Source: Bacteroidales bacterium (GTDB lineage Bacteria > Bacteroidota > Bacteroidia > Bacteroidales > UBA1715). From it: a DNA stretch of 64,000 nucleotides. The notes under the pieces are model-generated. The model saw nothing but the letters and a program-made list of their open reading frames with translations. It did not search any database and had not been told where the DNA came from. A program made the position numbers and the translations under genes. Below, piece after piece: positions 31,186 through 52,675 of the stretch; within the stretch, counting starts at the first letter, position 1, and the number at the start of each line of letters is the position of its first letter. The DNA is taken from NCBI GenBank assembly GCA_031286165.1, contig JAITUU010000019.1, positions 6,730-70,729 of the forward strand. Direction: 5' to 3'.

Positions 31186-31579
31186 GGGGGTGACTGGAAT
31201 TGACGGGGAGTTGATTATTGATGTAAGCATGTCGGGCAATCAAGATTTTGACCCGTAAAAACATATCTTGAAACAATAACTGGCGAAAATACTTACGCTC
31301 TTGCTGCCTAATCGAATCATAGTAGATTAACGCTTTACGCTGTTCAAGGAACAGTGGCAGGACATTCCGCAAATGGCAAGTCCTTAGTCGTTTGAATCCG
31401 GAGTGCTGTAATTAAGGAATAGCGCACAATGTGTTTGGAGTTGTGCGTAAAATTTACAAACTAAGGAAAAAGTAGAGTGCCTGTTTTCGGCTTTTTCCCT
31501 ACAATCAACAACACGGCTACACATGTAGAAAGCATTGGTAATGCTTGTTCGGACCGGGGTTCGATTCCCCGCACCTCCA
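31186..31579 (+). ncRNA. ssrA: tmRNA; tag peptide GENTYALAA* at 31282-31311
   Basis: 5' GGGGGTG pairs with 3' CACCTCC-A; T-arm GGGGTTCGATTCCCC; tag ORF GGC GAA AAT ACT TAC GCT CTT GCT GCC TAA. Confidence 0.95.
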
Positions 31580-31580
31580 C
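31556..31580 (+). repeat. attL core (3' end of tmRNA)
   Basis: GGGGTTCGATTCCCCGCACCTCCAC, identical to 52651-52675. Confidence 0.92.
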
Positions 31581-31687
31581 AAACCGTACCCACAAAGGGT
31601 TTGCCGACTTTTTGTGGGAAATACGGGAACTGAATCGGAACTATTTTATTTTTTTTTCGCGCTGATGTTCATCAACGTAAAAAAAAA

Positions 31688-32878
31688 ATGCCCACACCTC
31701 AAAAAAATCAAGAGCGCGGCGCAATAGTGAGTGATTTGTACGGCTACACTCCTGCCGTACTCAAAGAATATGCCGACTATTGGTGCATAGAATACTATGT
31801 GAAGCATCCGGTAACGCACAAACTTACGCGCCGGAGAGAAAAAGTAAGCGCTTATAGAACGCGCTACGGCGTGCGCGAGGCACGGAATTTACTGCGAGTG
31901 GCAGTTAGCCGCTTGAATTTAAAATTGTCGCAAGGCTGGAATCCGTATTTTGTGCATGAAGACGGTCGCCTACTTGAACCGCTGCACATGGTTATACATA
32001 AATTTTTGGCGGAAAAAGAACGCGATTTACGCCCGAATACACTGCGTTCATACAAAAGCATGGTAGGCAAAGAACTGCGCGAATGGGCGCAAAAGAATTA
32101 TCCCACAATTACCGCTTCCACATTTACACGAAATATTGCCGTGCGCTATATGGATTTTATTCTGGCAAAAGGAGTGAGTAATACTTCATACAACAATACA
32201 AAAAAAATGATGAGTGCCTTTTTTAGTTGGTGCGTGGAAAAATGCTACGCAAAAGAAAATCCGTTTGCGCACATAAAACCAAAGAGAAAAGAACAAAAAC
32301 GCCGCATATTGGTTCCTGCCGAAGTACGAGAGCAAATTACCACTTATTTACAAGAAAACAAAAATATTGGTATGCAAATAGCCGTAAATTTGGTGTATCA
32401 AAGTCTTTTGCGCCCCAAAGAAATAAATGAAATTCAACTCAAACACATTCATTTGAGCGACAAATATATACTTGTGCCGGCTACGGTGGCAAAAAATCAC
32501 AACGAACGAAAAGCAACACTGAGCGATGCCACAATAGAACTACTGCAAAGATTGAAGATTGAAACATTACCGAAGGAATATTACTTACTCGGCGGCAATT
32601 CCAACCAACAAAGTTTACTGCCCCACGCTATACAATCGAATACGCAACGAATTTCTAAAAATTGGGATAGCATGCGAAAAAAACTAAATTTTCCCAAAGA
32701 AATGCAACTATACAGTTTGCGCGATACCGGCATAACCGATTTGCTCAAAAAAGGAATAGACCCACTTACGGTAATGCAGCACGCCGACCACCATTCGCTG
32801 GAAATGACCACAAAATACGCAAAACATATTGATACGGGATTGGTGCAGAAGATGAATAAAGTACTGCCGGATTTCTAA
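31688..32878 (+). CDS. Tyrosine recombinase/integrase
   Basis: Catalytic R (LLRPKEI), K (AKNH), YSLRDTG, ADHHS, TTKY; lies ~110 bp from attL. Confidence 0.92.
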   Translation: MPTPQKNQERGAIVSDLYGYTPAVLKEYADYWCIEYYVKHPVTHKLTRRREKVSAYRTRYGVREARNLLRVAVSRLNLKLSQGWNPYFVHEDGRLLEPLHMVIHKFLAEKERDLRPNTLRSYKSMVGKELREWAQKNYPTITASTFTRNIAVRYMDFILAKGVSNTSYNNTKKMMSAFFSWCVEKCYAKENPFAHIKPKRKEQKRRILVPAEVREQITTYLQENKNIGMQIAVNLVYQSLLRPKEINEIQLKHIHLSDKYILVPATVAKNHNERKATLSDATIELLQRLKIETLPKEYYLLGGNSNQQSLLPHAIQSNTQRISKNWDSMRKKLNFPKEMQLYSLRDTGITDLLKKGIDPLTVMQHADHHSLEMTTKYAKHIDTGLVQKMNKVLPDF

Positions 32879-32927
32879 AAAAAAACGGAATAGTTCTCGA
32901 AAAACTATTCCGGGTATTCATACTCTT

Positions 32928-33467
32928 TTACCATATTCTTATACTAACTCCGGCTCCTATAATAGATGTTGATGCAATACAAAAAAACATATATCGCTGA
33001 TTTTCAGCACTTGCAAAAACTGCGGGAGCGAACACACTCTGCGAGTATAATCCACCAGCACCAAATCCATATCGCCACCTGTGCAGCGGTTGTATTTCTT
33101 TGGTAATTATGGTAGTGCGCTTATAACTTTCGCCGTGCCACGAGCGCGAAATAATTTGATTGGCAAGCACGCTATCGGTAAGAAACACCACAAAACAACT
33201 ATCACGCAGCGTGTCGGCATACACGCGCAGTTGCTTGTATGTGGCTATTATTCGCTCCGTGTCGGTTGCGGTAGCAAGTGCAATGGTATCTACCATGCGC
33301 AGGGTTCTATACGCAGGTACATAACACGTATCGCGCACCGTAATAGTATCTATACGAGTTACTGTGCGTGTTTCTATGGTGTTTTTTGGTGTACACACAT
33401 GAAACACACATAACATACTCGCCACGCCAATAGCAAAAGCCCCAATGATTTTCAAAAATGTTTCCAT
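32928..33467 (-). CDS. Membrane-anchored beta-rich protein, possibly spanin-like lysis accessory protein
   Basis: N-terminal TM, TRIDTITVRDT-type repeats, C-terminal beta strands with GFGAGG; last gene of the late operon. Confidence 0.4.
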   Translation of the reverse strand: METFLKIIGAFAIGVASMLCVFHVCTPKNTIETRTVTRIDTITVRDTCYVPAYRTLRMVDTIALATATDTERIIATYKQLRVYADTLRDSCFVVFLTDSVLANQIISRSWHGESYKRTTIITKEIQPLHRWRYGFGAGGLYSQSVFAPAVFASAENQRYMFFCIASTSIIGAGVSIRIW

Positions 33468-33487
33468 CGTTTTTCGTTTTAGTGCAT

Positions 33488-33523
33488 AAAAAAACCGGTA
33501 CAGTTCGTATTGAATTATACCGG
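33488..33523 (-). terminator. Intrinsic terminator of cassette A (homolog at 50110-50144; inverted homolog at 52503-52537)
   Basis: Minus strand CCGGTATAATTC-AATAC-GAACTGTACCGG followed by T7. Confidence 0.75.
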
Positions 33524-33551
33524 TTCTGTGGGTGAGTGGAGAGAAAAAAAC

Positions 33552-33950
33552 TTATTCTTTGTAGTGTTTTGCAGCCCAATCAATAATCATTTTTCCTTGT
33601 TCTAAACTTGCTCTCACAATTTTATAATTGGGATTACCATCGTACCCCAACGCTTTGTGCAAACTTTCGTATGCTCCCAACAATGGAAAATTCATTTTAC
33701 GGTCTTTTTTTGCAACCGCATTTTGATAATCTTTAAAATCAGGTCTTTGCCCTTTTTTGAGATTTTTACGTACATCGGTGGCAGCATCAAGAGCCACAAG
33801 AACTCCGTTCCATGCTGTATTTCCTGCCATTTTCACATACTTAGGGTCGGTGTAATAATCACCGTCTTTTTCTGCTTTTTCGGAAAGTATCTGCTTTGCA
33901 TTTTCCAAATAGCGTTCCGCTTCTTTAATCGGGTGCTTTTGTATTGCCAT
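33552..33950 (-). CDS. DUF5618-family small helical protein (cargo gene with own promoter and terminator)
   Basis: AERYLENAKQIL...YYTDPKYVKMAGNTAWNGVLVALD...LHKALGYDG. Confidence 0.7.
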   Translation of the reverse strand: MAIQKHPIKEAERYLENAKQILSEKAEKDGDYYTDPKYVKMAGNTAWNGVLVALDAATDVRKNLKKGQRPDFKDYQNAVAKKDRKMNFPLLGAYESLHKALGYDGNPNYKIVRASLEQGKMIIDWAAKHYKE

Positions 33951-33975
33951 AGTCGTATGATTTTAAATTCCTTTG

Positions 33976-34045
33976 TGCAAATATACAACGAAAAACGTAA
34001 AAACAATATTTCTTTTTCGGTACAATTCAATATGTCAACGAACTC
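33976..34045 (-). promoter_or_regulatory. Cassette A promoter block, homologous to 50759-50829
   Basis: Minus strand TATATTTG (Bacteroidota -7 TAnnTTTG) at 33978-33985; ~70 bp near-identical to the cassette C flank. Confidence 0.7.
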
Positions 34046-34108: not shown

Positions 34109-34450
34109 TTATTTTTTGAATTTTTTATACGCCACTACTCCGCCACCAACGATTGCAACTATTACAAGTACAATCCACCATGGAAAACAAAATTTCACAT
34201 TTTCGGCAGGAATTTCAAGTAAACTCGTAACCGGTTCGTTTTTCACACTATCGGTAATTTTTATAGATTGCTTTGTGGGGTCTATAATCAATACTTGTTT
34301 GTCGCCTTTGGTTTTCATATCGCCCACAATTTTTTCCCCTTCGGGAATACTTGCGGTAATTTCCTTACTCACGTATGCGCTTGCTTTGTACGTATCGAAC
34401 GCTACCGATGTGGCTTTGGTTACTTTATACGTTTTAAAAAGATTTTTCAT
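34109..34450 (-). CDS. Tail-anchored membrane protein, putative virion protein
   Basis: C-terminal TM PWWIVLVIVAIVGGGVVAY + KKFKK. Confidence 0.65.
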   Translation of the reverse strand: MKNLFKTYKVTKATSVAFDTYKASAYVSKEITASIPEGEKIVGDMKTKGDKQVLIIDPTKQSIKITDSVKNEPVTSLLEIPAENVKFCFPWWIVLVIVAIVGGGVVAYKKFKK

Positions 34451-34465: not shown

Positions 34466-35191
34466 TTATTTATTGTAATACATTGATTTTTTGAATGTTT
34501 CATAATACAGTTTCGATATATATTTATCGTACTGTGCTCTTTTATTTGCTCCCTGCCAATGCAAAAAACTCGCAGGCTTCAATTCCGTAACTTCCAAACC
34601 ATAGAACTGTACAATTTGGCTCAAATTAAATTCCTCAACTCCCACCAAATAACCCATAGTTTCAGTGTTTCGCGGTGCTTTTTGGCAGTATGTGCGTGCA
34701 AAATCAAAAACTTCCTTCCATACAAAATAAGCACCTGTGCTGCCAAGTAAGCCGCTGCATATCAATTTTGCCGGAATGGTATCGGTTTTGGGTAATATGG
34801 CGCAGTCTTTAAACGCTTGCACGTAGGTATAATCGCGCTCCTGTTCGGTTATAATATGTCCGCTTTCGGGTATCCGGAACTCGGTGTGAAAATAGGTGTC
34901 GAAATCCACGTGTAAAAACGCTTCGCTTTGCAAACTATATACATAGAGTTTTCCAAAATTCCAATATGCCATATTGTGCGGAAACTGCATAAAATCCACC
35001 ACGTGTACCACATCGAAAGACACGCAGAAATTACTGCCACGAAATACATCGGCACAGTACGTATCGGTGTAGAGTTCTACCCGGTATCCGCAGTTTTTCA
35101 TACTTTGTACACTCAGTTCCGCCATGCGCAGCCACCATGCACAGGGTATGTTTTTTCCACCGTAGGAATTAAAGGAGTATATTACTTTCAT
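34466..35191 (-). CDS. DUF6734-like / GT-A-type glycosyltransferase-like protein
   Basis: WNFGKLYVYSLQSEAFLHVDFD (DxD), EEFNL, FLHWQG. Confidence 0.5.
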   Translation of the reverse strand: MKVIYSFNSYGGKNIPCAWWLRMAELSVQSMKNCGYRVELYTDTYCADVFRGSNFCVSFDVVHVVDFMQFPHNMAYWNFGKLYVYSLQSEAFLHVDFDTYFHTEFRIPESGHIITEQERDYTYVQAFKDCAILPKTDTIPAKLICSGLLGSTGAYFVWKEVFDFARTYCQKAPRNTETMGYLVGVEEFNLSQIVQFYGLEVTELKPASFLHWQGANKRAQYDKYISKLYYETFKKSMYYNK

Positions 35192-35206: not shown

Positions 35207-35503
35207 TTATTTGTATTTTATGCGGTGTTCGCAATTCATATTTTTGCAGGCTTTGCCTTTGAAAAATTGCACTTCTTTTTCAATCTCTTCTATGCGTATT
35301 TCCCACTTTTTGTCGCGTGCTATCATTTCGTTGCGCAGGCTTTCGAGGGCGTATTGATAGGTTTCGGCAATGGTTTTGTAGGTTTCGTTTATGGCACGCT
35401 CGGTTTCGGCTTTTTGCTTGCGCATACCAAAAAAGTAACTTACCACTCCGCTCGCCGCTGCCGTTGCGCCCAAAACTCCTATATGTACTTCTTCAAAAGT
35501 CAT
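35207..35503 (-). CDS. Holin-like protein (N-terminal TM + coiled coil)
   Basis: TM IGVLGATAAASGVVSYFF, coiled coil, C-terminal CxxxxC; late-operon position. Confidence 0.45.
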   Translation of the reverse strand: MTFEEVHIGVLGATAAASGVVSYFFGMRKQKAETERAINETYKTIAETYQYALESLRNEMIARDKKWEIRIEEIEKEVQFFKGKACKNMNCEHRIKYK

Positions 35504-35514: not shown

Positions 35515-36651
35515 TTAGAAAATTCGTATGTACGGCACGTCAAATTGTTGCACAGTGCCGGGAAATGATTGGGCGATATATGATTGTAAGTTCATTGTAC
35601 CGCCGCCGTATGCCGTTGGTGGTGCAATTTCACTACCGGCAATAACGGTTTGCAGTACATTCGTGGAATTGGGAATTTCGCTTTTTATGCGTTTTGCAGC
35701 CAAGTATCGTGCGCTTGTGTGGTCTATAAACAGTACGGCATAGTATTTTTGCTCGGCATACAATAAAACTTCGTCTTCAAAATCGGCAGTAATAGCGCAC
35801 GGTTCGCTACGAGAAAGATAACCAATAAGCGTTTTGCGAACAAAAGTCATGTTCCAATCGTAAATCGCCACACGAAAGTTACCGCCGGTGTGATTTGTTT
35901 GTACGCAAATTTGCGCTTGTTTCACGGTAGTATCTACGGCAGGAATTACCATAACACCCACAAAACCGGGATTAAAATTTTGTGCACCCTCGCACAGTGC
36001 AAAGGGAAAACTTTCGATAGGTGCGGAACTGCCATTGCTTATGCAAGTTTGCTCACCACCAAGCGAAATAGTTTTTATTTTGTTCCATGTACGCACTTTG
36101 ATTTTTGGCGTTTCACCGTCCATAAAGAGCGACATTGTTTCTTCCATGAGATTATCATCGTCCGTTTCTTTCGCACTGTGAATAAAAGATTGCCCGGTAA
36201 GAAAATAATGATTGTCTGCATTAATTCTCAAATTAATAGCATTGGCGGAACCCTGCTCAGAAAATGTTCCGTTGTAATTTTTATACAAACAATTTCGGTC
36301 GGTAAGGCGGAAAAATTGAAAAGGATACCCGTATGTTCTTTGTTCGTGATTATATACAATCAATTCGTTATTTCTCACTTGCAGTATATCAAAACCGTTT
36401 TCCCGCTTCAAATGCAATCCGTTGCGCGAAATAGAAAGCCATTTTTTATACTCATTTCCCCATTCGTTTGCCTCATATTTCGCAAATTCTTCGGGATTTT
36501 CGCGTTTCAATTCCCCCAATTCTACAATCACATGTCCACTGCCTTCTATGGCAAGCGGTGGTGTGCTATTGTTTTGCGCTGCGGTATCGCCGCCAACAAT
36601 ATCAAGCAAACCGGTTTGCGGATTAATCGTTGTTTCGTAATCAAAACTCAT
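35515..36651 (-). CDS. Putative spike/receptor-binding protein
   Basis: N-terminal INPQTGLLDIVG anchor-like motif, beta-rich body, C-terminal sandwich-like domain (NFRVAIYD, QKYYAVLF). Confidence 0.5.
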   Translation of the reverse strand: MSFDYETTINPQTGLLDIVGGDTAAQNNSTPPLAIEGSGHVIVELGELKRENPEEFAKYEANEWGNEYKKWLSISRNGLHLKRENGFDILQVRNNELIVYNHEQRTYGYPFQFFRLTDRNCLYKNYNGTFSEQGSANAINLRINADNHYFLTGQSFIHSAKETDDDNLMEETMSLFMDGETPKIKVRTWNKIKTISLGGEQTCISNGSSAPIESFPFALCEGAQNFNPGFVGVMVIPAVDTTVKQAQICVQTNHTGGNFRVAIYDWNMTFVRKTLIGYLSRSEPCAITADFEDEVLLYAEQKYYAVLFIDHTSARYLAAKRIKSEIPNSTNVLQTVIAGSEIAPPTAYGGGTMNLQSYIAQSFPGTVQQFDVPYIRIF

Positions 36652-36653: not shown

Positions 36654-36923
36654 CTATACGGTTTTTAGTGCATATTCATACTGTTCGCGTTGCGCCCAAT
36701 CGAAATCAAACATACCGAAGCCGACCCATTCAGTACGATATGTTACGCTGCGCGTATTGGAAAACACTATTTTTTTTACGCGCTCAATGCGGCACTTCGT
36801 AGCATCGGTATTTTTTGGAAATCCGAAATACCACGTAGTTCCACCTTCATTCACATTCACCACTTCATGTACCAATGGTGCTTTCATGCAATTTGTTATT
36901 AGTTCCGAAGAATATTCATTCAT
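36654..36923 (-). CDS. Small virion protein, putative spike adaptor
   Basis: WYFG...CRIERV...FDFDWAQREQYEY pattern, immediately upstream of the spike gene. Confidence 0.4.
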   Translation of the reverse strand: MNEYSSELITNCMKAPLVHEVVNVNEGGTTWYFGFPKNTDATKCRIERVKKIVFSNTRSVTYRTEWVGFGMFDFDWAQREQYEYALKTV

Positions 36924-36940: not shown

Positions 36941-37549
36941 TTATGCAAGTGTGTAGCCTTTTTGTGCTACCCATTTGGTAATATAGTTTTTAAAAGAACC
37001 TACGGTAATAGCACCGGTAGCATCTTGGAATATTGCATTTTGCTGTGCTACTTTACTGCCGGGCGCAGCTATTATGTAACTTTCGGCTTTGCCCATTGCT
37101 GCAGGGTAGAATACTGCCAAATACACATCGGTAAAGCAATTCATTTTACCTTTATAGGTATTCAGGTATTTATACACGTAATCCAACTGTTGCACATTGG
37201 TCATGGCGCATAGTGCATCGCAGGTGGTGCCAAGTGCATTTGCTGTTTTGGGCATAAATTGAATCAATCCGGTGGCTCCACCTGTGGGATTCACAGCGCG
37301 GTGGTTCAATCGGCTTTCCATAGCCATTACCGCCATAAGCCAATCACCTTTAATGCCCAAAGAACCACAAATAGAGTGCACTTTTTGCAAAAAAGCCTCT
37401 TTGTTTTCGGTAACGTAGTTTTCAAAAATCATGACTGTATGTTTTATTGTTTTGCGAAATACACACACGAGCAAAACCAATAACGCTGCGCATAGAGCAA
37501 CGGCGGTTATAAGCAGTTTCTTTTCGCCTATCGGTATTTTTAGGTTCAT
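36941..37549 (-). CDS. Lytic transglycosylase (SLT/lysozyme-like) with N-terminal TM
   Basis: WLMAVMAMES (catalytic Glu), GATGLIQFMPKTA, QLDYVYKY, YLAVFYP. Confidence 0.85.
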   Translation of the reverse strand: MNLKIPIGEKKLLITAVALCAALLVLLVCVFRKTIKHTVMIFENYVTENKEAFLQKVHSICGSLGIKGDWLMAVMAMESRLNHRAVNPTGGATGLIQFMPKTANALGTTCDALCAMTNVQQLDYVYKYLNTYKGKMNCFTDVYLAVFYPAAMGKAESYIIAAPGSKVAQQNAIFQDATGAITVGSFKNYITKWVAQKGYTLA

Positions 37550-37707
37550 TACTGTATCATTTTATTGCCCACAATGAGAATAACACCCACCAAAAGCAAG
37601 GCACCGGCAAGCATACAAATACTTGTTGTTTCTATTGCTACCGGTACTTCGGGCAGCCGACCGTCTTTGATGTCGGCTACTAATTTTGAGTTTAAAAGGT
37701 CATTCAT
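37549..37707 (-). CDS. 52-aa membrane protein missed by the ORF track
   Basis: MNDLLNSKLVADIKDGRLPEVPVAIETTSICMLAGALLLVGVILIVGNKMIQ*; fills the gap exactly, with TAATG coupling to the transglycosylase. Confidence 0.7.
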   Translation of the reverse strand: MNDLLNSKLVADIKDGRLPEVPVAIETTSICMLAGALLLVGVILIVGNKMIQ

Positions 37708-37708
37708 G

Positions 37709-38032
37709 TTATTTTACGTATTGGTCAAATTGTGCTTTGGTAAATTCTTTGGTATTGTAATATTTCACAAGTGCCGCTTCGGTAAGTGGTCCAAAATCAC
37801 CATCAACAACCAAACTCGCTCCTTTACTATTCAAGTGCGTTTGCAATTTTGACACGTTGTCGCTATTCATTACTCCGTTTTTAAGCGGAAAATCGTTGGC
37901 GGTGGAAGAAGAAGTTCCTATACCGGGCACTCTGCTTTGCCCTTGTGATTTTTTACCTTGCACTATAATAATTGCCGCTACTATGGCTGCAATTACTACT
38001 GCTATCAAAATATATTTCGTTGTTTTTGTCAT
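37709..38032 (-). CDS. Membrane-anchored peptidoglycan-binding domain protein
   Basis: N-terminal TM; VSKLQTHLN...LVVDGDFGPLTEAAL (PG_binding_1 motif). Confidence 0.8.
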   Translation of the reverse strand: MTKTTKYILIAVVIAAIVAAIIIVQGKKSQGQSRVPGIGTSSSTANDFPLKNGVMNSDNVSKLQTHLNSKGASLVVDGDFGPLTEAALVKYYNTKEFTKAQFDQYVK

Positions 38033-38044: not shown

Positions 38045-38494
38045 TTAAAGTGATACGTTTATTGATTTTAAAATAAAATTGAGTTCTTGCATTTCGCCGC
38101 TACTGAGTTCGGTGGGGAGTAGTTCCGGTAGGTTGCCTTTGTAATTACCCACAAAGAATAAACCTGAATTGACTTCTTTAATGCCAAACACATCTACCAA
38201 GCGCAGCCAATCCGATTTTGTTTTCATTTTTCGGGCTACATTGTAAATTGCCTCTACATTAGTACCTATGCCGTCCATAGCGTTAAATATGGTGGCTGCC
38301 ATATCGCGGTATTCAACATCGGAATAACTGAGGTCATTTTTATTAATTTCGCTTTTGCGCTCGCTCTCACGATTTTTTGAGAGAAACCATTCCTGAATTT
38401 TTGGTTTCAGAAACGTATATCCTACGTATGCCACTATTACTACAATAGTTACGAGAATGATTTTTTGCAATCGAGGGTCTAAATTTTTTAACAT
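38045..38494 (-). CDS. Membrane-anchored protein with a single annexin-like repeat
   Basis: N-terminal TM; MAATIFNAMDGIGTNVEAIYNV...LPELLPTELSSGE resembles annexin AxxLxxAMKGxGTDE...LxSELSG. Confidence 0.55.
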   Translation of the reverse strand: MLKNLDPRLQKIILVTIVVIVAYVGYTFLKPKIQEWFLSKNRESERKSEINKNDLSYSDVEYRDMAATIFNAMDGIGTNVEAIYNVARKMKTKSDWLRLVDVFGIKEVNSGLFFVGNYKGNLPELLPTELSSGEMQELNFILKSINVSL

Positions 38495-38500
38495 AGTTTT

Positions 38501-38803
38501 TTATTTTTTCATTTTCATAAACACAACACCTCCGCCGATTGCGAGCACTACCACCGCAATAATTATTACAATCATGATAGAATTACTTCCTTCGCTCTTG
38601 TTGTCATTATTATTTCCTCCGGCTCCGGCTTTTGCAAGTAATGCCATTTGCTGTATTTGCATTTCGGCTATTCTTTCATTTGACGCTGCTACCGCTGCAT
38701 TTCCAGCTGCGGTTGTTTTTGCAGCCTTATTATTTGCTATGCCAGCCACTACTGTACTTCCTAAGTCGCCTACACATGATATTATTGGTCCTAAATCAAA
38801 CAT
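38501..38803 (-). CDS. Tail-anchored membrane protein, putative virion protein
   Basis: Amphipathic N-terminus, Ala-rich helix, C-terminal TM VVVLAIGGGVVF + MKMKK. Confidence 0.65.
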   Translation of the reverse strand: MFDLGPIISCVGDLGSTVVAGIANNKAAKTTAAGNAAVAASNERIAEMQIQQMALLAKAGAGGNNNDNKSEGSNSIMIVIIIAVVVLAIGGGVVFMKMKK

Positions 38804-44736: not shown

Positions 44737-44737
44737 A

Positions 44738-45576: not shown

Positions 45577-46020
45577 CTAACTGCCAACCTTGCACAAGTT
45601 GGACGATAACAATTTCTTTCTATACAGTCGCTTCGTTTCTATTGGAGTGGCTGTTTTTATTTGATATTTGTTCTTCTTGTCAAATGCAGTCAGTTGTATA
45701 GCGGCTTGTTTCGATTTTTTATCTTCCATAACAACCAATAAATATGAATTATCGGAACCTTGATATATCGCATTAAAATTATCAACAATGAATTTCACAA
45801 AATCAAAAGCACTTAACCCAAGTTGCGTAAGTTCCGTAGTGTGGTCATTATATATATGCACCAATTCGCGTTCTGAAACTACAATATCGCAGGCTTTGAG
45901 CACAGGTGTTGCCCACGAATTGTATTGTATGCGCCCAACTTTTAAAAATTTGTTATCGTTGTGAGCCTTTGCGCCGGAACCGGCATTGCTCTTTTGTGAT
46001 TGTTTGGTTTGTTGCAGCAT
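45577..46020 (-). CDS. Stand-alone BECR-fold (phage Barnase-EndoU-ColicinE5/D-RelE-like) nuclease candidate
   Basis: IVVSERELVHIYNDH (HIxxxH), IYQG, LLVV, YQIKTA pattern; own TATATTTG box at 46058-46065. Confidence 0.5.
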   Translation of the reverse strand: MLQQTKQSQKSNAGSGAKAHNDNKFLKVGRIQYNSWATPVLKACDIVVSERELVHIYNDHTTELTQLGLSAFDFVKFIVDNFNAIYQGSDNSYLLVVMEDKKSKQAAIQLTAFDKKNKYQIKTATPIETKRLYRKKLLSSNLCKVGS

Positions 46021-46140
46021 GACTAAAAACTATAGTGTATATATTTTTAGCCGTTCACAAATATAGAAATTTTTATTGAAAAACAAACGCTTGTTATAAA
46101 AAATATGCGTTTACAATGCTAACAACTGTAAATCAAATTG

Positions 46141-46518
46141 TTTACAACTTTGAAACCACTTGAAACCACTTTGTATTCAACCGATTTCACTTTGTATTCG
46201 CTTGAAACCGTTTTGTAAGCAGTTGTTTTTACACTGAAATCGGCGTGAAAACAGAAATAGTTTGACGGAATGTACGGACTTCTGTAATATGGTATTATTC
46301 AATATATTACATAAATTCTCGTTTTGACGGAGCAATATGATAATACCACATTCAATACACTGATTATAAAGAAATTACATTCCGTCAAAACAATTTTTTT
46401 GAGTTTTGACGGAAAAACCGTGTCCGTCAAAAACCGTCAAATAAAACTCAAAATTTTGACGGCTTGCAAATGATTGAAAATCATTGTTTTATATACTTAT
46501 TTTTTTCTCTCCGTCAAA
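46141..46518. repeat. Putative replication origin: eight TTTGACGG/CCGTCAAA octamers plus TGAAACC/TTGTATTC repeats
   Basis: Forward copies at 46261, 46323, 46405, 46455; reverse copies at 46382, 46424, 46434, 46511; AT-rich, gene-free. Confidence 0.7.
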
Positions 46519-46590
46519 ACCGTACAAAAGAATATATTATTTAAGAGTATATCATTTGAATTAAGCTGCGCGAGTGGTACAAAAAAGGTA

Positions 46591-46648
46591 AAAAAAAGCC
46601 CCCCGAAGGCAGTGTTTTGTGCAACTGTTTCGGAGGGCTTTTTTTTGA
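46591..46648. terminator. Bidirectional terminator-like hairpin 3' of the replication operon
   Basis: AAAAAAAGCCCCCCGAAGGCAG...CTGTTTCGGAGGGCTTTTTTT. Confidence 0.65.
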
Positions 46649-46664
46649 GTATTATAACAGACCG

Positions 46665-46916
46665 TTAGAGATTATTACAATGCTGCCGATACGTTTTGTA
46701 TTGGGCAAGGTAATCGTTCCACGAAAGCGTGGTGATGCGGCGCAAATTACCATGATGTATTTCAAATTGCCAGCCAAATTCCGCATGATTTTCGCGCAGA
46801 ATTGCAATAACAGTAGATTCAAATTGCACACTATCTTTTGCAATGCTGCCGATGCCGACACTCTGCCCGCTACTCATGTTACGCAAATATGCTTCAACTT
46901 TTCTTTTATACTCCAT
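46665..46916 (-). CDS. Small hypothetical protein coupled to the primase gene
   Basis: TAATG overlap with the primase stop. Confidence 0.6.
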   Translation of the reverse strand: MEYKRKVEAYLRNMSSGQSVGIGSIAKDSVQFESTVIAILRENHAEFGWQFEIHHGNLRRITTLSWNDYLAQYKTYRQHCNNL

Positions 46917-49699
46917 TAAAACGGTTTTTCTTCGATTGCTTCTATGTGAAAATAATAAACATCGCGCCCATTCTCATAGCCGCGAATCACATTGCGTGAT
47001 TTTTCGGTTTCGGTAAGGAGCAAGTGCGGAGGATTGAAAAGCCATCTTTTGAAACGGCAGAATGTAATGAGTTTTTCTTTCATTTTGCTCATTTTGGCGT
47101 GTTTTGCATATTGTTCCGGCATGGAGTTTTTATATGCGTTGAATATTTCAGCACTATCAATATTACAATTAAGTTTATCGGGCTGAAAAAAATCCTCAGC
47201 CCAGAATATAAATTCTTCGGTGAGTTCCCTGCGTAGTATTCGTTGTTCTATCATATCCATTGGTGGATTTACTTTTTCGCGGAATTTCAAATAAGTATGC
47301 AGGCATTGAGCCATGAAATTATAAAACTCATTCATTTCATTTTCGGTGTAATCGATTGGAATATTTTTACCAAATTCGGTGTATGGCGAAAATTCTTTTA
47401 TTCCTTGTACCGGGTCGTCTCCATGATAATAATCGCAAAAGCCGGTAAACCAAAAACGGCGTTTGAGCGGTCCATCAAAATTTTTCGGTGCATGGTTACT
47501 CGACGCACAGAGTTTTGGTGATTGAGAAAACAGCAATGTAACTTCGTTTTTGTAGAGTGCTCGCACGTCCATACTCTGAGTAATGGGGGGCAGCAGAGCG
47601 TGCAAATCAACCACACTATCAAGGTCATCAAAGTAAAATACTTTGGTTTTGTTTAATTCTACTTTCGACCACAATTTTTCGTCTTTCAAATCAATGCCTT
47701 GCCCACCTTTTCGCTCAAAGGGGCGCACATAACTAAGACTTTCAAAAAATATTGATTTACCGGTACCGCCTTTTTTATCGCCTTTGCTGTCAAGTTCAGT
47801 TTCTATGGCATATACAAGCCACGCCTTTGCCATTTCTTTGTACCGAAACATCATGTAGCCAAGCGCAAGAACTTTACTGATAAAAAACAAGTCCTCCTCG
47901 CGTTTTTCATCAATCGTAAGCGTTTTGCCTTCCTTTTCTTTGCGCCAATAGAACTTTCCTGTATTATACAAAAACTTCAAAAATGAAAAATCTTTGTTGT
48001 TAATCGTTAGGTCAAATCGCTCACTATTAGGCATCGTATTGAGTTGCTGTGCCTTTTCCTTATATTCGTAACTCGTAGGGTTGAGTTCCGAGAGTTCCTT
48101 TCGTAAGCGCACATACGCTTTGCTATAATCTACCCGAAAGGGTTCTTGTTCTTTACGAAAAGTATGGTCTATGATTTCGTATTCGTGTATGAATTTATTT
48201 TTTTCGTTGAATTGCTTTACTTCTAAGCCTTCGGCAGTGATTCGCACGGCTGTATTTTTGAAAAAAAGATAATCGTGCTCTTTGCTCCATGTTTGAAAAT
48301 CAAGGTGTATGCGCGGTATTTTCTTTAAACTCGAAAATTTTACTTGATTACTGCGGTGTATAGTGTTAATAAGTGATTTATTGTAGTATTCCAAGTTTGT
48401 TTTCACAAAATTGATTAATTGTGTGTTTGCGTGGCTATCTACATTGTCTTCGGTAATTTCGTAAGTTATATTATTGTCTATTTGTATGAAATCAAATTTT
48501 GATTTGTTTTGCGGATTGTCAAAAGTCCACAAGCCCAATGCAGAAAGAAAACGATATAAATTATCGTTATCCAAATCGTATTTTATATTTACAATCGTTC
48601 CATCTTTATCTTTTTGCTCTACTTCACTCCAAAATTGCAGGGTATTTGCACTACGCACCAACTGTTTGAATAAGTATTCGTTTCTGGGATATTTTTTATT
48701 TCTGTAATGTACAAAAAAATCTTTTACGTCTTTACAAGGATTGCCTTTGCGGTCGCGAAAATTTTTTAAATCTTCGGGAAGATTGATAATGTGAAAATCC
48801 AAAAATTCCAAAGCGTATTTTTGCGCTTGGCGAATACCGGTAGTGTCGGTATCGTAGCACAAATAGAGTGTTTTAGCAATTCTGCGCAGTGTTTTGTGTG
48901 TGAAATTTGAAATTTCGGCACTTTCGGAATTGAAAAACAGTACATTAAATGATGTATTTGCAAAAATATTGAGCGCATCGCTGCCTCCGGAACAAAGTAT
49001 TACCTCTTCCAATGTATTGTCTTCATCGGGAGCCTTTCCCTCTATAGCTTGATTATATAGCCGCATAGTTTTTGCATTGCCCGAAATGCTGTTTTGTGGT
49101 TTTTCGCCGTAATACGAAAAACGATTGTCTTTCGAGTGGGGCTGATACAAACGACCGTAGATACCATAATCGTACAAAAAAATAGGAAATTCGGTCGTGC
49201 TGCTTATTTCCCAACATTCGGCACCGGTCTTTCCGGGTCGTATAAAACTTTCAACAGAATAGAGGTTAAATTCTCGCTCGCATATTTCGGCTGTTATGTT
49301 TTTGCCAAGTAATGAGAGTTCCGCTTCCGTAAATTGTTTGCGTTTATACGAAAACGTATCTTGATACGCAACCTTTTTGAAACCGGGTTTTGCTTCCGGA
49401 GCCGCTTTGCCATCAATTGGTATATGATAGCGTTCCGCAAGGCGGCGAATAGCATCGCCTTTACTCATGTTTTCTATTTTTGCCACAAAATCTATCACGT
49501 CCATTGTGGAATCCATACACGAAAAACACTTACAGTATTGCTTTGCCGGATTCACACTAAATGCCGGTGTTTTTGTATTGTCGTGGAATGGGCAAAATCC
49601 TGACCAACTACCCCCATTGCGTGTTAAATTTACATAGTCGCCTACCACATCTACTATGTCGGTGGCGTTTTTAATGCGGTTTATTATTGAATTATCCAC
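46916..49699 (-). CDS. Primase-helicase: CHC2 zinc finger + Toprim-like + C-terminal P-loop NTPase
   Basis: CPFHDNTKTPAFSV...CKCFSC; ILCSGGSDAL and CYDTDTTG; GGTGKS, FYFDDL, CASSN. Confidence 0.85.
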   Translation of the reverse strand: MDNSIINRIKNATDIVDVVGDYVNLTRNGGSWSGFCPFHDNTKTPAFSVNPAKQYCKCFSCMDSTMDVIDFVAKIENMSKGDAIRRLAERYHIPIDGKAAPEAKPGFKKVAYQDTFSYKRKQFTEAELSLLGKNITAEICEREFNLYSVESFIRPGKTGAECWEISSTTEFPIFLYDYGIYGRLYQPHSKDNRFSYYGEKPQNSISGNAKTMRLYNQAIEGKAPDEDNTLEEVILCSGGSDALNIFANTSFNVLFFNSESAEISNFTHKTLRRIAKTLYLCYDTDTTGIRQAQKYALEFLDFHIINLPEDLKNFRDRKGNPCKDVKDFFVHYRNKKYPRNEYLFKQLVRSANTLQFWSEVEQKDKDGTIVNIKYDLDNDNLYRFLSALGLWTFDNPQNKSKFDFIQIDNNITYEITEDNVDSHANTQLINFVKTNLEYYNKSLINTIHRSNQVKFSSLKKIPRIHLDFQTWSKEHDYLFFKNTAVRITAEGLEVKQFNEKNKFIHEYEIIDHTFRKEQEPFRVDYSKAYVRLRKELSELNPTSYEYKEKAQQLNTMPNSERFDLTINNKDFSFLKFLYNTGKFYWRKEKEGKTLTIDEKREEDLFFISKVLALGYMMFRYKEMAKAWLVYAIETELDSKGDKKGGTGKSIFFESLSYVRPFERKGGQGIDLKDEKLWSKVELNKTKVFYFDDLDSVVDLHALLPPITQSMDVRALYKNEVTLLFSQSPKLCASSNHAPKNFDGPLKRRFWFTGFCDYYHGDDPVQGIKEFSPYTEFGKNIPIDYTENEMNEFYNFMAQCLHTYLKFREKVNPPMDMIEQRILRRELTEEFIFWAEDFFQPDKLNCNIDSAEIFNAYKNSMPEQYAKHAKMSKMKEKLITFCRFKRWLFNPPHLLLTETEKSRNVIRGYENGRDVYYFHIEAIEEKPF

Positions 49700-49701
49700 A
49701 C

Positions 49702-50061
49702 CTATAAACCTTTAAAAAATTTATTTTTCATAGCCGCGCATAGTTCTTCGTAGGTAGCCATGTAGTTTAAGCCTACGGCATCGCAAATTGCCTCGTAACC
49801 CTTTGGAGTATGTTGTTCCACAAGTCCTTCAATAAAGGATTGTGAAAAACCAATTTCATAGAATAAATCGCTTTCGTCAATATTTAGATGGTAGCGCAAG
49901 TGGTACACTATATCTTCCCTATCGAAGTCGAAAAGTGTTTTTTGTTGAAAGTATTCATCTGCATACGCATTAATTATATCCTGCGGAATTTGTCGAATAA
50001 AATCGTATATTTCAAAGGATGAAATACACGTTACTGTGTTGTCGTTTATTGTTAGTTTCAT
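49702..50061 (-). CDS. Acidic hypothetical protein
   Basis: Tightly coupled upstream of the primase. Confidence 0.65.
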   Translation of the reverse strand: MKLTINDNTVTCISSFEIYDFIRQIPQDIINAYADEYFQQKTLFDFDREDIVYHLRYHLNIDESDLFYEIGFSQSFIEGLVEQHTPKGYEAICDAVGLNYMATYEELCAAMKNKFFKGL

Positions 50062-50109
50062 GTTGTTTTAGTTATTAGTGGTTAGTTATTAATTTTCGTT
50101 TTTGTACAT

Positions 50110-50144
50110 AAAAAACCGGTACAGTTCGTATTGAATTGTACCGG
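50110..50144 (-). terminator. Intrinsic terminator of cassette C
   Basis: Minus strand CCGGTACAATTC-AATAC-GAACTGTACCGG-T6. Confidence 0.75.
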
Positions 50145-50176
50145 GTAGAAGGCTGAGGAAATAAAAAAGTAAGTTA

Positions 50177-50551
50177 TTATTTCTTAAATAAGTCGGAGTG
50201 GGTTCCTAATTGAAACAAGATAAGAGTTAGTTCTTCATTATTCACTTGCCACACCAAAAGCCAATCGGGTTTTACGTGGCATTCCCATGTTTCAGCACCA
50301 TAGCCATGTAATTGGTGGGGAACATATTTAGAATCTAATCGAGCACCTTTGGCAATAGTATGAATTACTCTTTCAAGTAATCGTAAATCCAAATTGCGCT
50401 TGTATGATAATGATAATTGTTTCTTAAACTCATTGGTTGCCAATATTTGGAATATTGCATCGGAATAATCGGCAATCGTATCAAAAAACCCTCTTACCGT
50501 CATTCTTTTTTCTGATATAGTGCCGTGCTGCAACTTTCTCATTTTCTCCAA
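50177..50551 (-). CDS. yafQ: YafQ-family toxin with N-terminal extension (start uncertain)
   Basis: FKKQL...HQLHG...WECHVKPDWLLVW...LGTHSDLF. Confidence 0.85.
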   Translation of the reverse strand: MEKMRKLQHGTISEKRMTVRGFFDTIADYSDAIFQILATNEFKKQLSLSYKRNLDLRLLERVIHTIAKGARLDSKYVPHQLHGYGAETWECHVKPDWLLVWQVNNEELTLILFQLGTHSDLFKK

Positions 50552-50733
50552 TTTTTTGGCGTATGAAGCACTGAAACACGACCATATTTTACATCGTCAA
50601 ACGCTTTTTCCATGCCTGTTTTTACAGGGGTGTTTATTGTCCACTTTAATTTTTTTGCTAATTCCGAAATCAGATTAAAATCTTTCATGGGAATATTAAC
50701 GGTAACGTAAGGTTGTTCGATTGTTGTTGCCAT
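50539..50733 (-). CDS. Cognate antitoxin 3 (64 aa; start MATTIEQ)
   Basis: VTVNIPMKDFNLISELAKKLKW is homologous to antitoxins 1 and 2; MEKAFDDVKYGRV tail. Confidence 0.8.
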   Translation of the reverse strand: MATTIEQPYVTVNIPMKDFNLISELAKKLKWTINTPVKTGMEKAFDDVKYGRVSVLHTPKNWRK

Positions 50734-50758
50734 AGCCGTAAATTTTAAAATTTCTTTC

Positions 50759-50829
50759 TGCAAATATACAACGAAAACAGAAAAAACAATATTTCCTTTT
50801 TCGGTACAATTCAATATGTCAATGAACTC
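50759..50829 (-). promoter_or_regulatory. Cassette C promoter block, homologous to 33976-34045
   Basis: TATATTTG -7 box (50761-68) plus CGGTACAATTCAATA (50802-16). Confidence 0.7.
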
Positions 50830-50878
50830 GATTCCGGTGGGGTACGCACTCTTGCGCACTGATTGTAATGTTCAATTC

Positions 50879-51229
50879 TCAACTTTCAATGTTCAACTGT
50901 TCGGAGAATTGATAGATGCTGCGCACGCGCTTTACTTCCGAAGTCCACACTGTGTGGTCGAAGCCTAATTGCCTACCCGGAATATAACATCTCCAACTTA
51001 CATGGCGGGAATTATGCTCGTATTCCGAAAACATGAGTGCTTTGGTGCGTGGATACGTTTCGTTGAGTTCCAGCATTTTGAGTTGAATTTCTGCTTTCAG
51101 AGCATCGAGGCTCAGGCGCGAGGAAATTAATACATTTTCATACTGTCGGGCAATTTCGCCCATTGCAGCACATTTAGCGTTTTTCTCCGCATACACGCTC
51201 AGCGTGTGGGTAACATACAGTTCTGTCAT
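50879..51229 (-). CDS. Early hypothetical protein; start re-called at MTELYV
   Basis: Same TACGGCT-ATG leader as the antitoxins; first gene after the leftward promoter. Confidence 0.6.
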   Translation of the reverse strand: MTELYVTHTLSVYAEKNAKCAAMGEIARQYENVLISSRLSLDALKAEIQLKMLELNETYPRTKALMFSEYEHNSRHVSWRCYIPGRQLGFDHTVWTSEVKRVRSIYQFSEQLNIES

Positions 51230-51373
51230 AGCCGTAGTGGTTTTAAAACAAAAATGCCGTTTAATTTCTGCACGGCTAAGGACAGTCATTAAACAGCACT
51301 CTTGTTGTACTTTCTTTTCTGTTTACGTTTTTTTAGCCGTTACCAAGCAAACTTTTGTTTGCTTCGCAAAATT

Positions 51374-51438
51374 AGAATTAAATTCCGCAAATAACCACAT
51401 TTTTGAGAATTAAATTCATTAAAAATAGAATTAAATTC
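51374..51438. promoter_or_regulatory. Three identical 12-bp operator-like sites between divergent promoters
   Basis: AGAATTAAATTC at 51374, 51406, 51427; leftward TAATTTTG -7 box abutting the first site. Confidence 0.7.
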
Positions 51439-51473
51439 TTAAAATATTAGAAATCAATTAATTAAATTTAGAT

Positions 51474-51770
51474 ATGAAGTCAATCACAGAAATTTTAAAA
51501 GAGTTACGCGAAAAAAAAGGTAAAACTCAACAGGATTTAGCCAATGTGCTTAATTTGGAGGTTAGTAGTTATGGAAAGAAAGAACTTGGAAAAGCCGATA
51601 TAACCCTAACGCAATTAGAACGTATTTCTAATTTTTATAACATTTCAGTATTGGAACTTTTAGCATACCCCAATACTGTTTCTATTAATGAAAAACAGAA
51701 TATTAAAGGAACATTGAGTATTGAAATAAACGGAGAAAAACAAGATTTTGAGATTAATTTAAAGCAATAG
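51474..51770 (+). CDS. XRE-family HTH repressor
   Basis: LKELREKKGKTQQDLANVL...SYGKKELGKADITLTQLERIS; divergent from the lytic genes. Confidence 0.9.
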   Translation: MKSITEILKELREKKGKTQQDLANVLNLEVSSYGKKELGKADITLTQLERISNFYNISVLELLAYPNTVSINEKQNIKGTLSIEINGEKQDFEINLKQ

Positions 51771-51771
51771 T

Positions 51772-52122
51772 ATGAATTTAAAAATAAAGTGGTGGCACAT
51801 TTGCATTGTAACAATAGGACTGATGGGATTTACTTTTGCGCTTGGTTGTTTTATAGATAGCAAAGTAATATTACTCGAACAAAATTTAATATTAGGATTT
51901 GTTGGTGGTTTGGCAGCATTTATCGTTGTGGGAAATTTTGCACAGGTTTTACATATAAAACAAGATTTAGACGAAAGAATATGCAAAATTGAAAAATTAG
52001 AGGGACGAATTGAAATATTAGAACAAGTCTTTGAAAATTTAGCAAAAGAGAATAGCAATATTGGTGAACTAATAACAAAACTTGCAAAACAAATACTTCC
52101 GGAAGAAAAAACTAATGAATAG
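51772..52122 (+). CDS. Two-TM membrane protein with coiled coil (immunity operon)
   Basis: Two hydrophobic segments followed by heptads; coupled to the repressor. Confidence 0.6.
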   Translation: MNLKIKWWHICIVTIGLMGFTFALGCFIDSKVILLEQNLILGFVGGLAAFIVVGNFAQVLHIKQDLDERICKIEKLEGRIEILEQVFENLAKENSNIGELITKLAKQILPEEKTNE

Positions 52123-52357
52123 AATTATGGACTACTCTCGTTTAAAAGATTTAGATGAAAAAGTACGCAATAAAACAGCGAGCGAACAGGAGAAATTGGA
52201 ATATCTTGAAATGTTGCAAAAAAACGAATCGATTACAAAAAAACAATTGGATAATTACAGAAATGGAAAACTTAAAGATGACTTAATTACTGCTGGCTTA
52301 GCAATTGGCGGTATGTTACTTCTTGCTTGGTTGATAAATAAATTAATAAAAGATTAA
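52115..52357 (+). CDS. Tail-anchored small protein (immunity operon)
   Basis: Charged helical domain + TM LITAGLAIGGMLLLAWLI. Confidence 0.65.
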   Translation: MNRIMDYSRLKDLDEKVRNKTASEQEKLEYLEMLQKNESITKKQLDNYRNGKLKDDLITAGLAIGGMLLLAWLINKLIKD

Positions 52358-52502
52358 CATGACGTTATTTATCGCGATTATCGCAATGATTGCAACATGG
52401 GTAGGAGCATATTGGACATACCAAGCAGCCAATACTGTTCACATAATAAGTAAGAATATTGAAGTAAATGAACAAACAAGGCAAATCATACCACCTTCTA
52501 CC

Positions 52503-52537
52503 CGGTACAATTCAATACAAACTGTACCGTTTTTTTT
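52503..52537 (+). terminator. Terminator of the repressor operon, third copy of the cassette terminator
   Basis: CGGTACAATTCAATACAAACTGTACCG-T8. Confidence 0.7.
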
Positions 52538-52650
52538 GTGCTTTGCAGTAACCATATAGGAACGCACCGGCAATAAAATAAAATAGAAAAAATATATAAA
52601 CAACTGAAAATAAGCGTGAGATACAAAATAGAATAGTTTATTTTTCGACT

Positions 52651-52675
52651 GGGGTTCGATTCCCCGCACCTCCAC
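52651..52675 (+). repeat. attR core (duplicated tmRNA 3' end)
   Basis: Identical to 31556-31580. Confidence 0.92.

Follow-up and report, generated by a model that had tools for sequence, protein, structure and literature searches.

What kind of virus, if any, lies next to the transfer-messenger RNA (tmRNA) gene of an uncultured Bacteroidales bacterium of the termite gut? The window analyzed here is a stretch of 64,000 nucleotides (nt) from a termite-gut metagenome (assembly GCA_031286165.1, contig JAITUU010000019.1, positions 6,730 to 70,729 of the forward strand), and all coordinates refer to that stretch. In it, a 21.1-kb element (31552-52675) is bounded by a 29-nt direct repeat. We propose, with a probability of roughly 65%, that the element is an intact temperate provirus from an undescribed lineage of tailless Bacteroidota viruses, in which a B204/P9-type ATPase would load double-stranded DNA (dsDNA) into a particle whose membrane the virus has modified; that it belongs to an undescribed phage lineage of Bacteroidota is probable. 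A first-pass annotation, made by a model from the sequence alone, had already described a temperate tailless dsDNA provirus. Its account of an apparently intact, temperate element free of tailed-phage hallmarks held, whereas the jelly-roll capsid, internal membrane, icosahedral shape, tailless particle and inducibility are features that we infer from gene content.

Integration in the host tmRNA gene

ARAGORN placed a tmRNA gene with the tag GENTYALAA at 31186-31580 on the plus strand. Its exact 3' end, the final 29 nt, is the left copy of the repeat (attL core, 31552-31580), and a repeat search located the right copy (attR core, 52647-52675, one mismatch) 21,095 nt away. The gene of a 396-amino-acid (aa) tyrosine integrase (31688-32878, plus strand; PF00589, E 8e-18, with a SAM-like domain) starts 108 nt past the end of the tmRNA gene. 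A direct repeat that copies the 3' end of the tmRNA gene, beside a tyrosine integrase gene, is the arrangement of a provirus integrated in tmRNA, as the first-pass annotation had claimed, and the repressor, primase-helicase, P-loop ATPase, transglycosylase and spike candidate that it listed were likewise all found where it had placed them. The integrase aside, the element consists of a minus-strand gene train running from 51289 to 32928 and a short plus-strand arm (51474-52559) that opens with the gene of an HTH_3 regulator. Its G+C content is ~0.33-0.43, compared to 0.42-0.45 in the flanks, the right one of which carries dapA.

A packaging ATPase of the B204/P9 type

The small ATPase of the element (43333-43887, minus strand) is 184 aa long from its conserved start, although its open reading frame (ORF) extends to 43926. 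Plain sequence searches returned P-loop noise and a sub-threshold match to Pox_A32 (E 0.0048) covering the Walker B motif and the region downstream of it, not the P-loop, and it took profile-profile comparison and a fold search to reveal what the protein is. An alignment of 15 homologues, including 11 loci from a scan of GTDB species genomes, had invariant GxRGxGKT, hhhh(D/E)D and SRKxxxDxxFxxH motifs. In hhalign this alignment (A8) matched the packaging ATPase of P23-77 (ORF13) at 97.0% (E 9.7e-11, 145 columns) and those of six Vinavirales members (PM2, a NO16-like phage and four Vibrio elements) at 95.6% (E 1.3e-8, 150 columns). PRD1 P9 scored 40% (E 2.9e-4) over 50 columns in the P9/A32-specific motif region, and the negative control, the element's own SF3 helicase, 1.2% (E 0.046, 13 columns). 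An AlphaFold2 model (predicted local distance difference test [pLDDT] 87.2, predicted template modelling score [pTM] 0.85) was searched against the PDB with Foldseek, and the 15 best matches were all B204 of Sulfolobus turreted icosahedral virus (STIV) or STIV2 (E 9e-9 to 1.5e-6, template modelling score [TM-score] 0.59-0.69), in alignments spanning ~180-200 of ~200 residues. The N-terminal domain of Zot (E 1.4e-5, TM-score 0.48) came next, followed by TdpAB and HerA.

Judged by its model and its profiles, the enzyme is a packaging ATPase of the FtsK-HerA superfamily, of the type found in tailless viruses with an internal membrane, as the A32/P9-type reading of the first pass had it. The element thereby possesses the A32/P9/B204-type packaging ATPase that marks Varidnaviria. 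The viruses known to use ATPases of the B204/P9/P23-77 type fill an already assembled icosahedral shell with DNA.

Since Zot was the next-best fold match and the element encodes many tiny single-pass membrane proteins, we also considered an inovirus-like filamentous phage in which a Zot/pI-like ATPase would drive extrusion and the small membrane proteins would form the coat. This is highly improbable, as B204 matched ~1,000-fold better by E-value and over the full length, and the ATPase has only 184 aa and no transmembrane segment, whereas Zot/pI ATPases are longer membrane proteins. Replication by a primase-helicase, with no rolling-circle Rep found, also speaks against a filamentous phage, and a 21-kb genome with a lytic transglycosylase, a peptidoglycan-binding protein and a large spike fits one poorly.

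Three conserved genes precede the ATPase (43877-45433, minus strand), encoding a coiled-coil protein of 231 aa and proteins of 97 and 187 aa; the gene of the 187-aa protein overlaps that of the ATPase. This four-gene block (45433-43333) recurs in four related loci (L007, L008, G438 and L047), and the three upstream products are candidate accessory proteins of assembly or packaging.

Gene order and the candidate coat protein

Read in the direction of transcription, the 187-aa protein and the overlapping ATPase are followed by toxin-antitoxin insertions, a 60-aa membrane protein, a 222-aa protein, further membrane proteins, a lytic transglycosylase with an SLT domain and a spike candidate. In PM2 the order is gp-h, the overlapping P9 ATPase, the small membrane protein P7, the P2 capsid protein, membrane proteins, spike and lysin, which is also the published core order of Vinavirales (PMC9502842), and comparison with PM2, the NO16-like phage and the four Vibrio elements found this core order in our element. 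The order in PRD1 is analogous (P10-P9-P20-P3, with the P7 transglycosylase further on). The likeness to PM2- and PRD1-type viruses suggested earlier thus extends to module order, which agrees with PM2, PRD1 and P23-77. The 60-aa membrane protein (41583-41765, minus strand) stands between the ATPase module and the 222-aa gene, in the position of PM2 P7 and PRD1 P20.

The 222-aa protein (40882-41550, minus strand), encoded by the second gene of the late operon, is a soluble protein predicted to form a beta-sandwich and is our candidate for the major capsid protein. Its AlphaFold2 model, built from a 34-sequence alignment, was confident (pLDDT 91.2, pTM 0.86) and had 11 strands and four short helices. 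The best of its weak PDB neighbors were nucleoplasmin cores, nozzle domains of T7 and PhiM1 and the TNF-like OX40L, and the coat proteins of tomato aspermy virus (TAV), satellite tobacco mosaic virus, picornaviruses and infectious bursal disease virus. In BFVD two unnamed viral proteins matched at E<1e-3, and the weaker neighbors included the TAV capsid (1.1e-3), the N-terminal domain of a giant-virus capsid protein (1.4e-2) and the STIV coat protein (1.4e-2), all at TM-scores of at most 0.35. The structural neighbors of the model are thus mostly jelly-roll proteins, none of them significant. A test of the 34-sequence profile for internal duplication was negative, and phiCjT23 P5, at 239 aa the smallest double jelly roll known (PMC9719478), is longer than this protein, which with 222 aa and 11 strands in the model resembles one sandwich. 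We predict that it is the coat protein from where its gene lies, its solubility, its fold class and its conservation together with the ATPase. A jelly-roll capsid protein was thereby not established: the beta-sandwich is confident and its weak neighbors are mostly jelly rolls, but no fold or profile match to capsid proteins reached significance.

The family is rare as well as divergent. The 222-aa protein had no match in Pfam, PHROGs, tblastn against 50,697 phage records, phmmer and profile searches of the PDB or pattern scans of IMG/VR, and by sequence the candidate matches no known capsid family. A word-indexed search of 5.8 billion proteins returned a single relative, whereas an exhaustive HMMER search of 1.8 billion representatives recovered 32 cluster representatives of 200-270 aa. 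Members occurred in 1 of 401 genomes of the host order and in 2 of 401 genomes of a phylum sample.

Several results count against the reading of the element as an intact provirus of a membrane-containing tailless virus. The 222-aa model found nothing in the PDB at E<=1e-3 (best E 6.5e-3, TM-score of at most 0.35), and hhalign of its profile gave 0.5% with PM2 P2 and 0.3% with six Vinavirales capsid proteins, indicating no relation, 0.1-0.2% with P23-77 VP16/VP17 and <1% with the FLiP capsid protein. It is also among the less conserved proteins of the element, being 44% identical to its counterpart in a sister provirus (described below), compared to 80% for the ATPase. Neither a penton nor a second capsid protein was identified in the element, and the upstream 187-aa protein had no detectable homology to PM2 gp-h (2%). 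Logan contigs of the source metagenome hold integrated junctions only, at a depth of ~16 that equals the flanks, though such contigs drop rare variants. Searches of IMG/VR and of phage genome records returned no homologue, and hence no virion of any member is known.

An alternative that draws on some of these points is a pleomorphic, capsid-less virus resembling plasmaviruses or pleolipoviruses, in which a membrane carrying small proteins and a spike would enclose the genome and the 222-aa protein would be a matrix or DNA-binding protein. The element does encode a great many membrane proteins, the capsid fold of the 222-aa protein is unconfirmed, no penton was identified, and a Flavobacteriaceae relative (L030) has almost only small membrane proteins after its 222-aa homologue. 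Nevertheless, we consider a capsid-less virus improbable, as the ATPase is of the B204/P9/P23-77 type, the ATPase, small transmembrane protein and conserved soluble beta-sandwich are ordered as in PM2 and PRD1, and the weak fold neighbors of the 222-aa protein are jelly rolls.

Absence of tailed-phage genes and an exchangeable spike domain

Scans of ~38 ORFs with Pfam and PHROGs found no terminase, portal, HK97 capsid, tape-measure, baseplate, sheath or tube family, the sole exception being the lysozyme domain of the SLT protein, and so agreed with the first-pass claim that tailed-phage motifs are absent. Only three ORFs exceed 300 aa (integrase, spike candidate and primase-helicase) and all three are assigned, leaving no room for a hidden terminase or portal. 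A tailed phage or satellite whose structural genes are too divergent to recognize would account for an SLT domain closest to the lysozyme domains of baseplate hubs and for a spike that has a domain in common with tail fibers. With none of the above families present, so few long ORFs and a packaging enzyme of the non-terminase FtsK-HerA type, we hold this to be very unlikely. A conjugative element was rejected, there being no relaxase, VirB4 or VirD4.

The spike or receptor-binding candidate (35515-36651, minus strand; 378 aa) had no family match, and its N-terminal half was without homologues. Its C-terminal ~170 residues (domain from about residue 205 to 378) have two further counterparts in this genome, one at the end of a 900-aa ORF on contig C19 (C19:2060-4762; 89% identity) and one that terminates a tail fiber of 566 aa on contig C46 (C46:41209-42909; 57% identity). 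The latter protein has a tail-fiber N-terminus (phrog_38537) and is encoded a few kilobases downstream of a baseplate hub (phrog_4930, 5e-59). In the sister provirus, a 532-aa leucine-rich repeat protein occupies the spike slot. A domain common to the spike and the tail fibers of co-resident prophages is what would be expected of a receptor-binding domain, and this argues, at the level of sequence, for a particle that has to attach to this host. The call of 35515-36651 as a spike thus gains support from an exchangeable C-terminal domain. The region on C46, with its baseplate hub and tail fiber, is a tailed prophage; that on C19 is prophage-like, with proteins of 700-900 aa that match only PHROGs of unknown function.

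Relatives in Bacteroidota

The sister provirus lies at the same tmRNA site in a termite-gut metagenome-assembled genome (MAG) of the same genus (GCA_009786075.1, contig WQTX01000039.1) and is syntenic with the element. Its integrase is 77% identical, and twenty genes, all open, are 42-80% identical. In the sister the ATPase gene directly precedes the capsid operon, without toxin-antitoxin cassettes, and the early region differs. An empty attB was accordingly not found in the same-genus genome, its tmRNA site being occupied by this related provirus. Either the element was inherited by both species or the site is a hotspot for the lineage. A fragment of the sister's attR was observed on a separate contig (C67).

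Across Bacteroidales, Chitinophagales and Flavobacteriales, genes for the ATPase and for members of the 222-aa family occur together in rare elements, most of them ~21 kb long. In 6 of 11 loci, and also in one further locus (L047), a 222-aa homologue follows the ATPase at a distance of 0.5-2.5 kb. In the complete genome of Phnomibacter sp. MR (Chitinophagales; NZ_CP123968, ~2.758-2.779 Mb), a ~21.5-kb element carries an integrase, a helix-turn-helix (HTH) regulator, early genes of ParB and SSB type and a GH108-like lysin in place of the SLT protein; its homologue of the 222-aa protein has 239 aa. MAGs of Flavobacteriales, Flavobacteriaceae and Vicingaceae also link the two genes, as does a 22.4-kb metagenome contig whose genes are all on one strand and which showed no integrase in the part read. 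By sequence, four proteins make up the family core: the ATPase, the 222-aa protein, a protein with an HEXXH motif and a membrane protein of 149 aa. The relatives exchange their replication modules, lysins and spikes, as reported likewise for Vinavirales (PMC9502842). In all relatives a single conserved soluble beta-protein follows the ATPase, not the two capsid genes of Helvetiavirae and Halopanivirales (P23-77, SH1).

Three further sets of loci were observed. A Chitinophagales MAG (MAG-100, JAHDBB010000001.1) carries two ATPase-bearing copies of an element (L026 and L027) ~28 kb apart on one contig, with an 858-aa CHC2 primase-helicase and, after the ATPase, a 231-aa protein that does not match the 222-aa profile and may be a more divergent or a different coat protein. 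A MAG labelled Thermotogaceae (CAZMHO010000093.1) also has a homologue of the ATPase (E 3e-11), preceded by the same block, which points either to a host that is not a member of Bacteroidota or to misbinning of the contig. Finally, in L008 and L009 (ENA ERZ27257346 and Logan SRR6219231) the four-gene ATPase block (58% identity) has a replication-type protein (Lin1244_N) and a DUF5618 gene directly after it where a capsid gene would otherwise stand; this element also has an S24 (LexA/CI-like) repressor and an integrase, and no late operon is reached within the contig.

INPHARED, IMG/VR, PHROGs and Pfam all lack the lineage, and in the literature we found no description of dsDNA, ATPase-encoding tailless proviruses in Bacteroidota, which supports the earlier suggestion of an undescribed lineage. 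The same absence from virome collections would also suit a non-viral or domesticated integrative element, such as a vesicle DNA export system or a surface or defense island, or a decayed provirus that makes no particles. Such an element would fit the lack of evident excision or extra copies in the source-metagenome contigs and the presence of several toxin-antitoxin and DUF5618 cargo cassettes, and a related element at the same site in the sister species could mean long vertical residence. However, all ~40 ORFs are open in both sister elements, the integrase, att sites and regulator are complete, and the replication module and spike have been swapped between the sisters, as in active phage populations. 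The spike moreover has a receptor-binding-type domain common to tail fibers, and the 22-kb one-strand relative looks like a free genome. A non-viral or dead element is therefore unlikely in our view.

Relation to known tailless phages

By its ATPase, the groups closest to the element are the P23-77-type Helvetiavirae and the PM2-type Vinavirales, and the nearest solved structure is that of STIV B204. P23-77 (Matshushitaviridae, Helvetiavirae), the best profile match of the ATPase, has a 17-kb genome compared to 21 kb and the same order of ATPase, small proteins, capsid gene or genes, small membrane proteins and lysozyme or transglycosylase, and the capsid candidate of the element is of single-beta-sandwich size. 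It differs in having two adjacent single-jelly-roll genes (VP16 and VP17) where the element has one candidate, and in its host phylum; the tyrosine integrase and the tmRNA site are features of the element. Members of Vinavirales (Corticoviridae, Autolykiviridae and gut prophages; PMC9502842) are mostly temperate and freely exchange replication modules, but the P2-type double jelly roll was not found in the element, whose genome is twice as large, and their reported hosts are Proteobacteria and Verrucomicrobia, not Bacteroidota (PMC9502842). STIV and STIV2 (Turriviridae) provide, in B204, the solved structure closest to the ATPase over its full length. STIV, however, infects archaea and has a double-jelly-roll coat protein of 37 kDa, which was only a weak BFVD neighbor of the 222-aa model.

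Within Bacteroidota, the Flavobacterium phages FLiP and phiCjT23 (Finnlakeviridae and relatives) resemble the element in host phylum, in having temperate members and in a lytic transglycosylase. Their particles are tailless and contain a membrane, as is proposed for the element. They have single-stranded DNA (ssDNA) genomes of 7-9 kb and no packaging ATPase (PMC9719478, PMC5894146); phiCjT23-like prophages integrate at dif via XerC/D (PMC9719478, PMC5894146), and FLiP relatives carry a rolling-circle Rep (PMC5894146). The element, at 21 kb and with a primase-helicase, a packaging ATPase and a tyrosine integrase in tmRNA, is thus not of the Finnlakeviridae or phiCjT23-like kind. A paper on Charybdis elements (bioRxiv 2025.08.03.668216) was also considered and is unrelated.

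The first-pass annotation had named FLiP and phiCjT23 as lipid-containing Bacteroidota phages, a list that omits the dsDNA phage SSIP-1. Salisaeta icosahedral phage 1 (SSIP-1) is a lytic, tailless dsDNA phage with an internal membrane and a ~44-kb genome, whose host was then classified in Bacteroidetes. To our knowledge, the ssDNA phages FLiP and phiCjT23 and the lytic SSIP-1 are the only lipid-containing tailless phages of Bacteroidota. In the tblastn search of the 50,697 phage records with the capsid candidate and the ATPase, there was no hit to SSIP-1.

Proposed infection cycle

If the element is the temperate tailless provirus that we propose, the tyrosine integrase would insert it into the 3' end of the host tmRNA gene, where the HTH_3 regulator would keep the long minus-strand gene train silent. 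Upon derepression, the primase-helicase would replicate a circular dsDNA genome, and the late operon would supply the ~220-aa beta-sandwich coat protein together with about eleven small single-pass membrane proteins that load a virus-specific patch of membrane. The 184-aa FtsK-HerA ATPase of B204/P9 type, probably with the three proteins encoded upstream of it, would then pump the genome into a preformed particle. Attachment to the host would be through a vertex protein whose C-terminal receptor-binding domain is exchangeable, and the membrane-anchored SLT transglycosylase and the peptidoglycan-binding protein may open the cell wall at entry, at lysis or at both.

Control region, early module and inserted cassettes

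The HTH_3 regulator (51474-51770, plus strand; PF01381, E 2.3e-10) diverges from the minus-strand train, and the region from the first early gene (136 aa, minus strand) through the regulator (50879-51770) is likely a regulatory switch. Three small proteins with transmembrane segments (51772-52559, plus strand) are co-oriented with the regulator and are perhaps expressed in lysogeny. The early or replication module (45577-50061, minus strand) encodes proteins of 147 and 83 aa, the primase-helicase and a protein of 119 aa. The primase-helicase itself (46916-49699, minus strand; 927 aa) has a CHC2 zinc finger (Zn_ribbon_DnaG, E 3e-26), matches to primase PHROGs and weak additional matches to Toprim and DUF5906.

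Four cassettes are found along the minus strand. Two tandem toxin-antitoxin cassettes of YafQ and YoeB type lie between the ATPase and capsid genes (41952-43192; PF15738, E 3e-26, and PF06769, E 3e-19) with a period of ~640 bp, a third, YafQ-like one lies in the early region (50177-50859; PF15738, E 6e-25), and a DUF5618 cassette (33552-33950; PF18498, E 4e-34) has its own flanks, which recur at 50093-50829. All four are inserted morons. In the sister provirus, no toxin-antitoxin genes separate the ATPase from the capsid gene, and the corresponding position of the late operon lacks DUF5618. The flanks of the tandem pair (region 41879-43192) are 95-100% identical, and across the cassettes the N-termini of the antitoxins are 80-84% identical while their C-termini and the toxins differ. 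The DUF5618 cassette (region 33471-34045) and the third toxin-antitoxin cassette (50093-50859) have in common ~70-bp upstream and ~50-bp downstream blocks, a sequence pattern that suggests a reusable slot for insertion or expression. An exact 15-nt sequence, CGGTACAATTCAATA, is present three times in the element, twice upstream of cargo cassettes and once close to attR (34018-34032, 50802-50816 and 52503-52517).

Other genes of the late operon

The late operon (41765 to 32928, minus strand) was described in the first pass as 18 genes dominated by membrane proteins. The dominance was confirmed, but the count became 19 ORFs, 11 of which are clear membrane proteins (a Kyte-Doolittle segment of at least 1.6), rather than 12 of 18. 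Such a share of membrane proteins is indirect evidence for an internal membrane. Upstream of the operon, five head-to-tail tandem repeats of 10 nt (41823-41887), ACTTTATCGG-like, are a putative operator or late promoter and may bind a late regulator. One such regulator could be the 66-aa protein encoded after the ATPase (43131-43331, minus strand), whose counterparts in relatives resemble HTH regulators by sequence inspection.

All of the remaining late genes are on the minus strand. Downstream of the capsid candidate, 39546-40875 encodes two small proteins (56 and 70 aa) and two membrane proteins with an N-terminal (165 aa) and a C-terminal (146 aa) transmembrane segment. The next gene encodes the zincin-like HEXXH protein of the family core (38809-39585; 258 aa), which has a C-terminal transmembrane segment, weak M78, M56 and M48 matches around the HEXXH motif and homologues in six related loci (L022, L023, L024, L030, L032 and L047). 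Single-pass membrane proteins of 149 and 100 aa follow (38045-38803), the former being the other core membrane protein, with homologues in L023, L030 and L032. The region 37549-38032 encodes a 52-aa membrane protein and a 107-aa membrane protein whose PG_binding_1 domain falls just under the Pfam cut-off (22.3 versus 23 bits, E 1.5e-4) and which also matches endolysin PHROGs (6e-6). The membrane-anchored lytic transglycosylase (36941-37549; 202 aa) has a transmembrane segment at residues 12-30, an SLT domain (PF01464, E 1.2e-8) and a match to the lysozyme domain of phrog_196 (6e-32).

Directly upstream of the spike gene, an 89-aa soluble protein (36654-36923; 53% identity in the sister provirus) is a candidate vertex or adaptor protein. 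A 98-aa protein with a hydrophobic N-terminus and a coiled coil (35207-35503), which had faint matches to Rz-like PHROGs only, is a candidate lysis or spanin-like protein. The operon continues with a DUF6734 protein (34466-35191; 241 aa; PF20508, E 1.4e-10), conserved in the sister provirus, and a 113-aa tail-anchored membrane protein (34109-34450), and its last gene encodes a 179-aa membrane protein (32928-33467; 58% identity in the sister provirus).

Significance

Tailless membrane-containing phages are badly undersampled, and the element represents a temperate dsDNA lineage of Bacteroidota with a genuine B204/P9-type packaging ATPase, a lineage that was missed by searches of Pfam, PHROGs, INPHARED and IMG/VR. 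On sequence comparison, the receptor-binding domain common to its spike and to the fibers of a co-resident tailed prophage shows module exchange across virus realms, although the realm of the element is itself unproven: because the fold of the capsid candidate stays unproven, so does membership of Varidnaviria. A cultured carrier with a complete genome, Phnomibacter sp. MR, makes the question testable at the bench. The coat candidate, smaller than any known double jelly roll, bears on the origin of the single- and double-jelly-roll capsids of Varidnaviria. Tentatively, and with more doubt than confidence, we suggest that the elements form a phylum-wide lineage of membrane-containing Bacteroidota viruses, of family level or higher, whose shell would be built from a single ~220-aa protein with one beta-sandwich, encoded by one gene. 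If true, this shell would differ both from the two single-jelly-roll proteins of Helvetiavirae and from the fused double jelly roll of Bamfordvirae, and would be either a living example of the one-gene state postulated for the ancestor of the realm or a new capsid fold combined with an A32-type motor.

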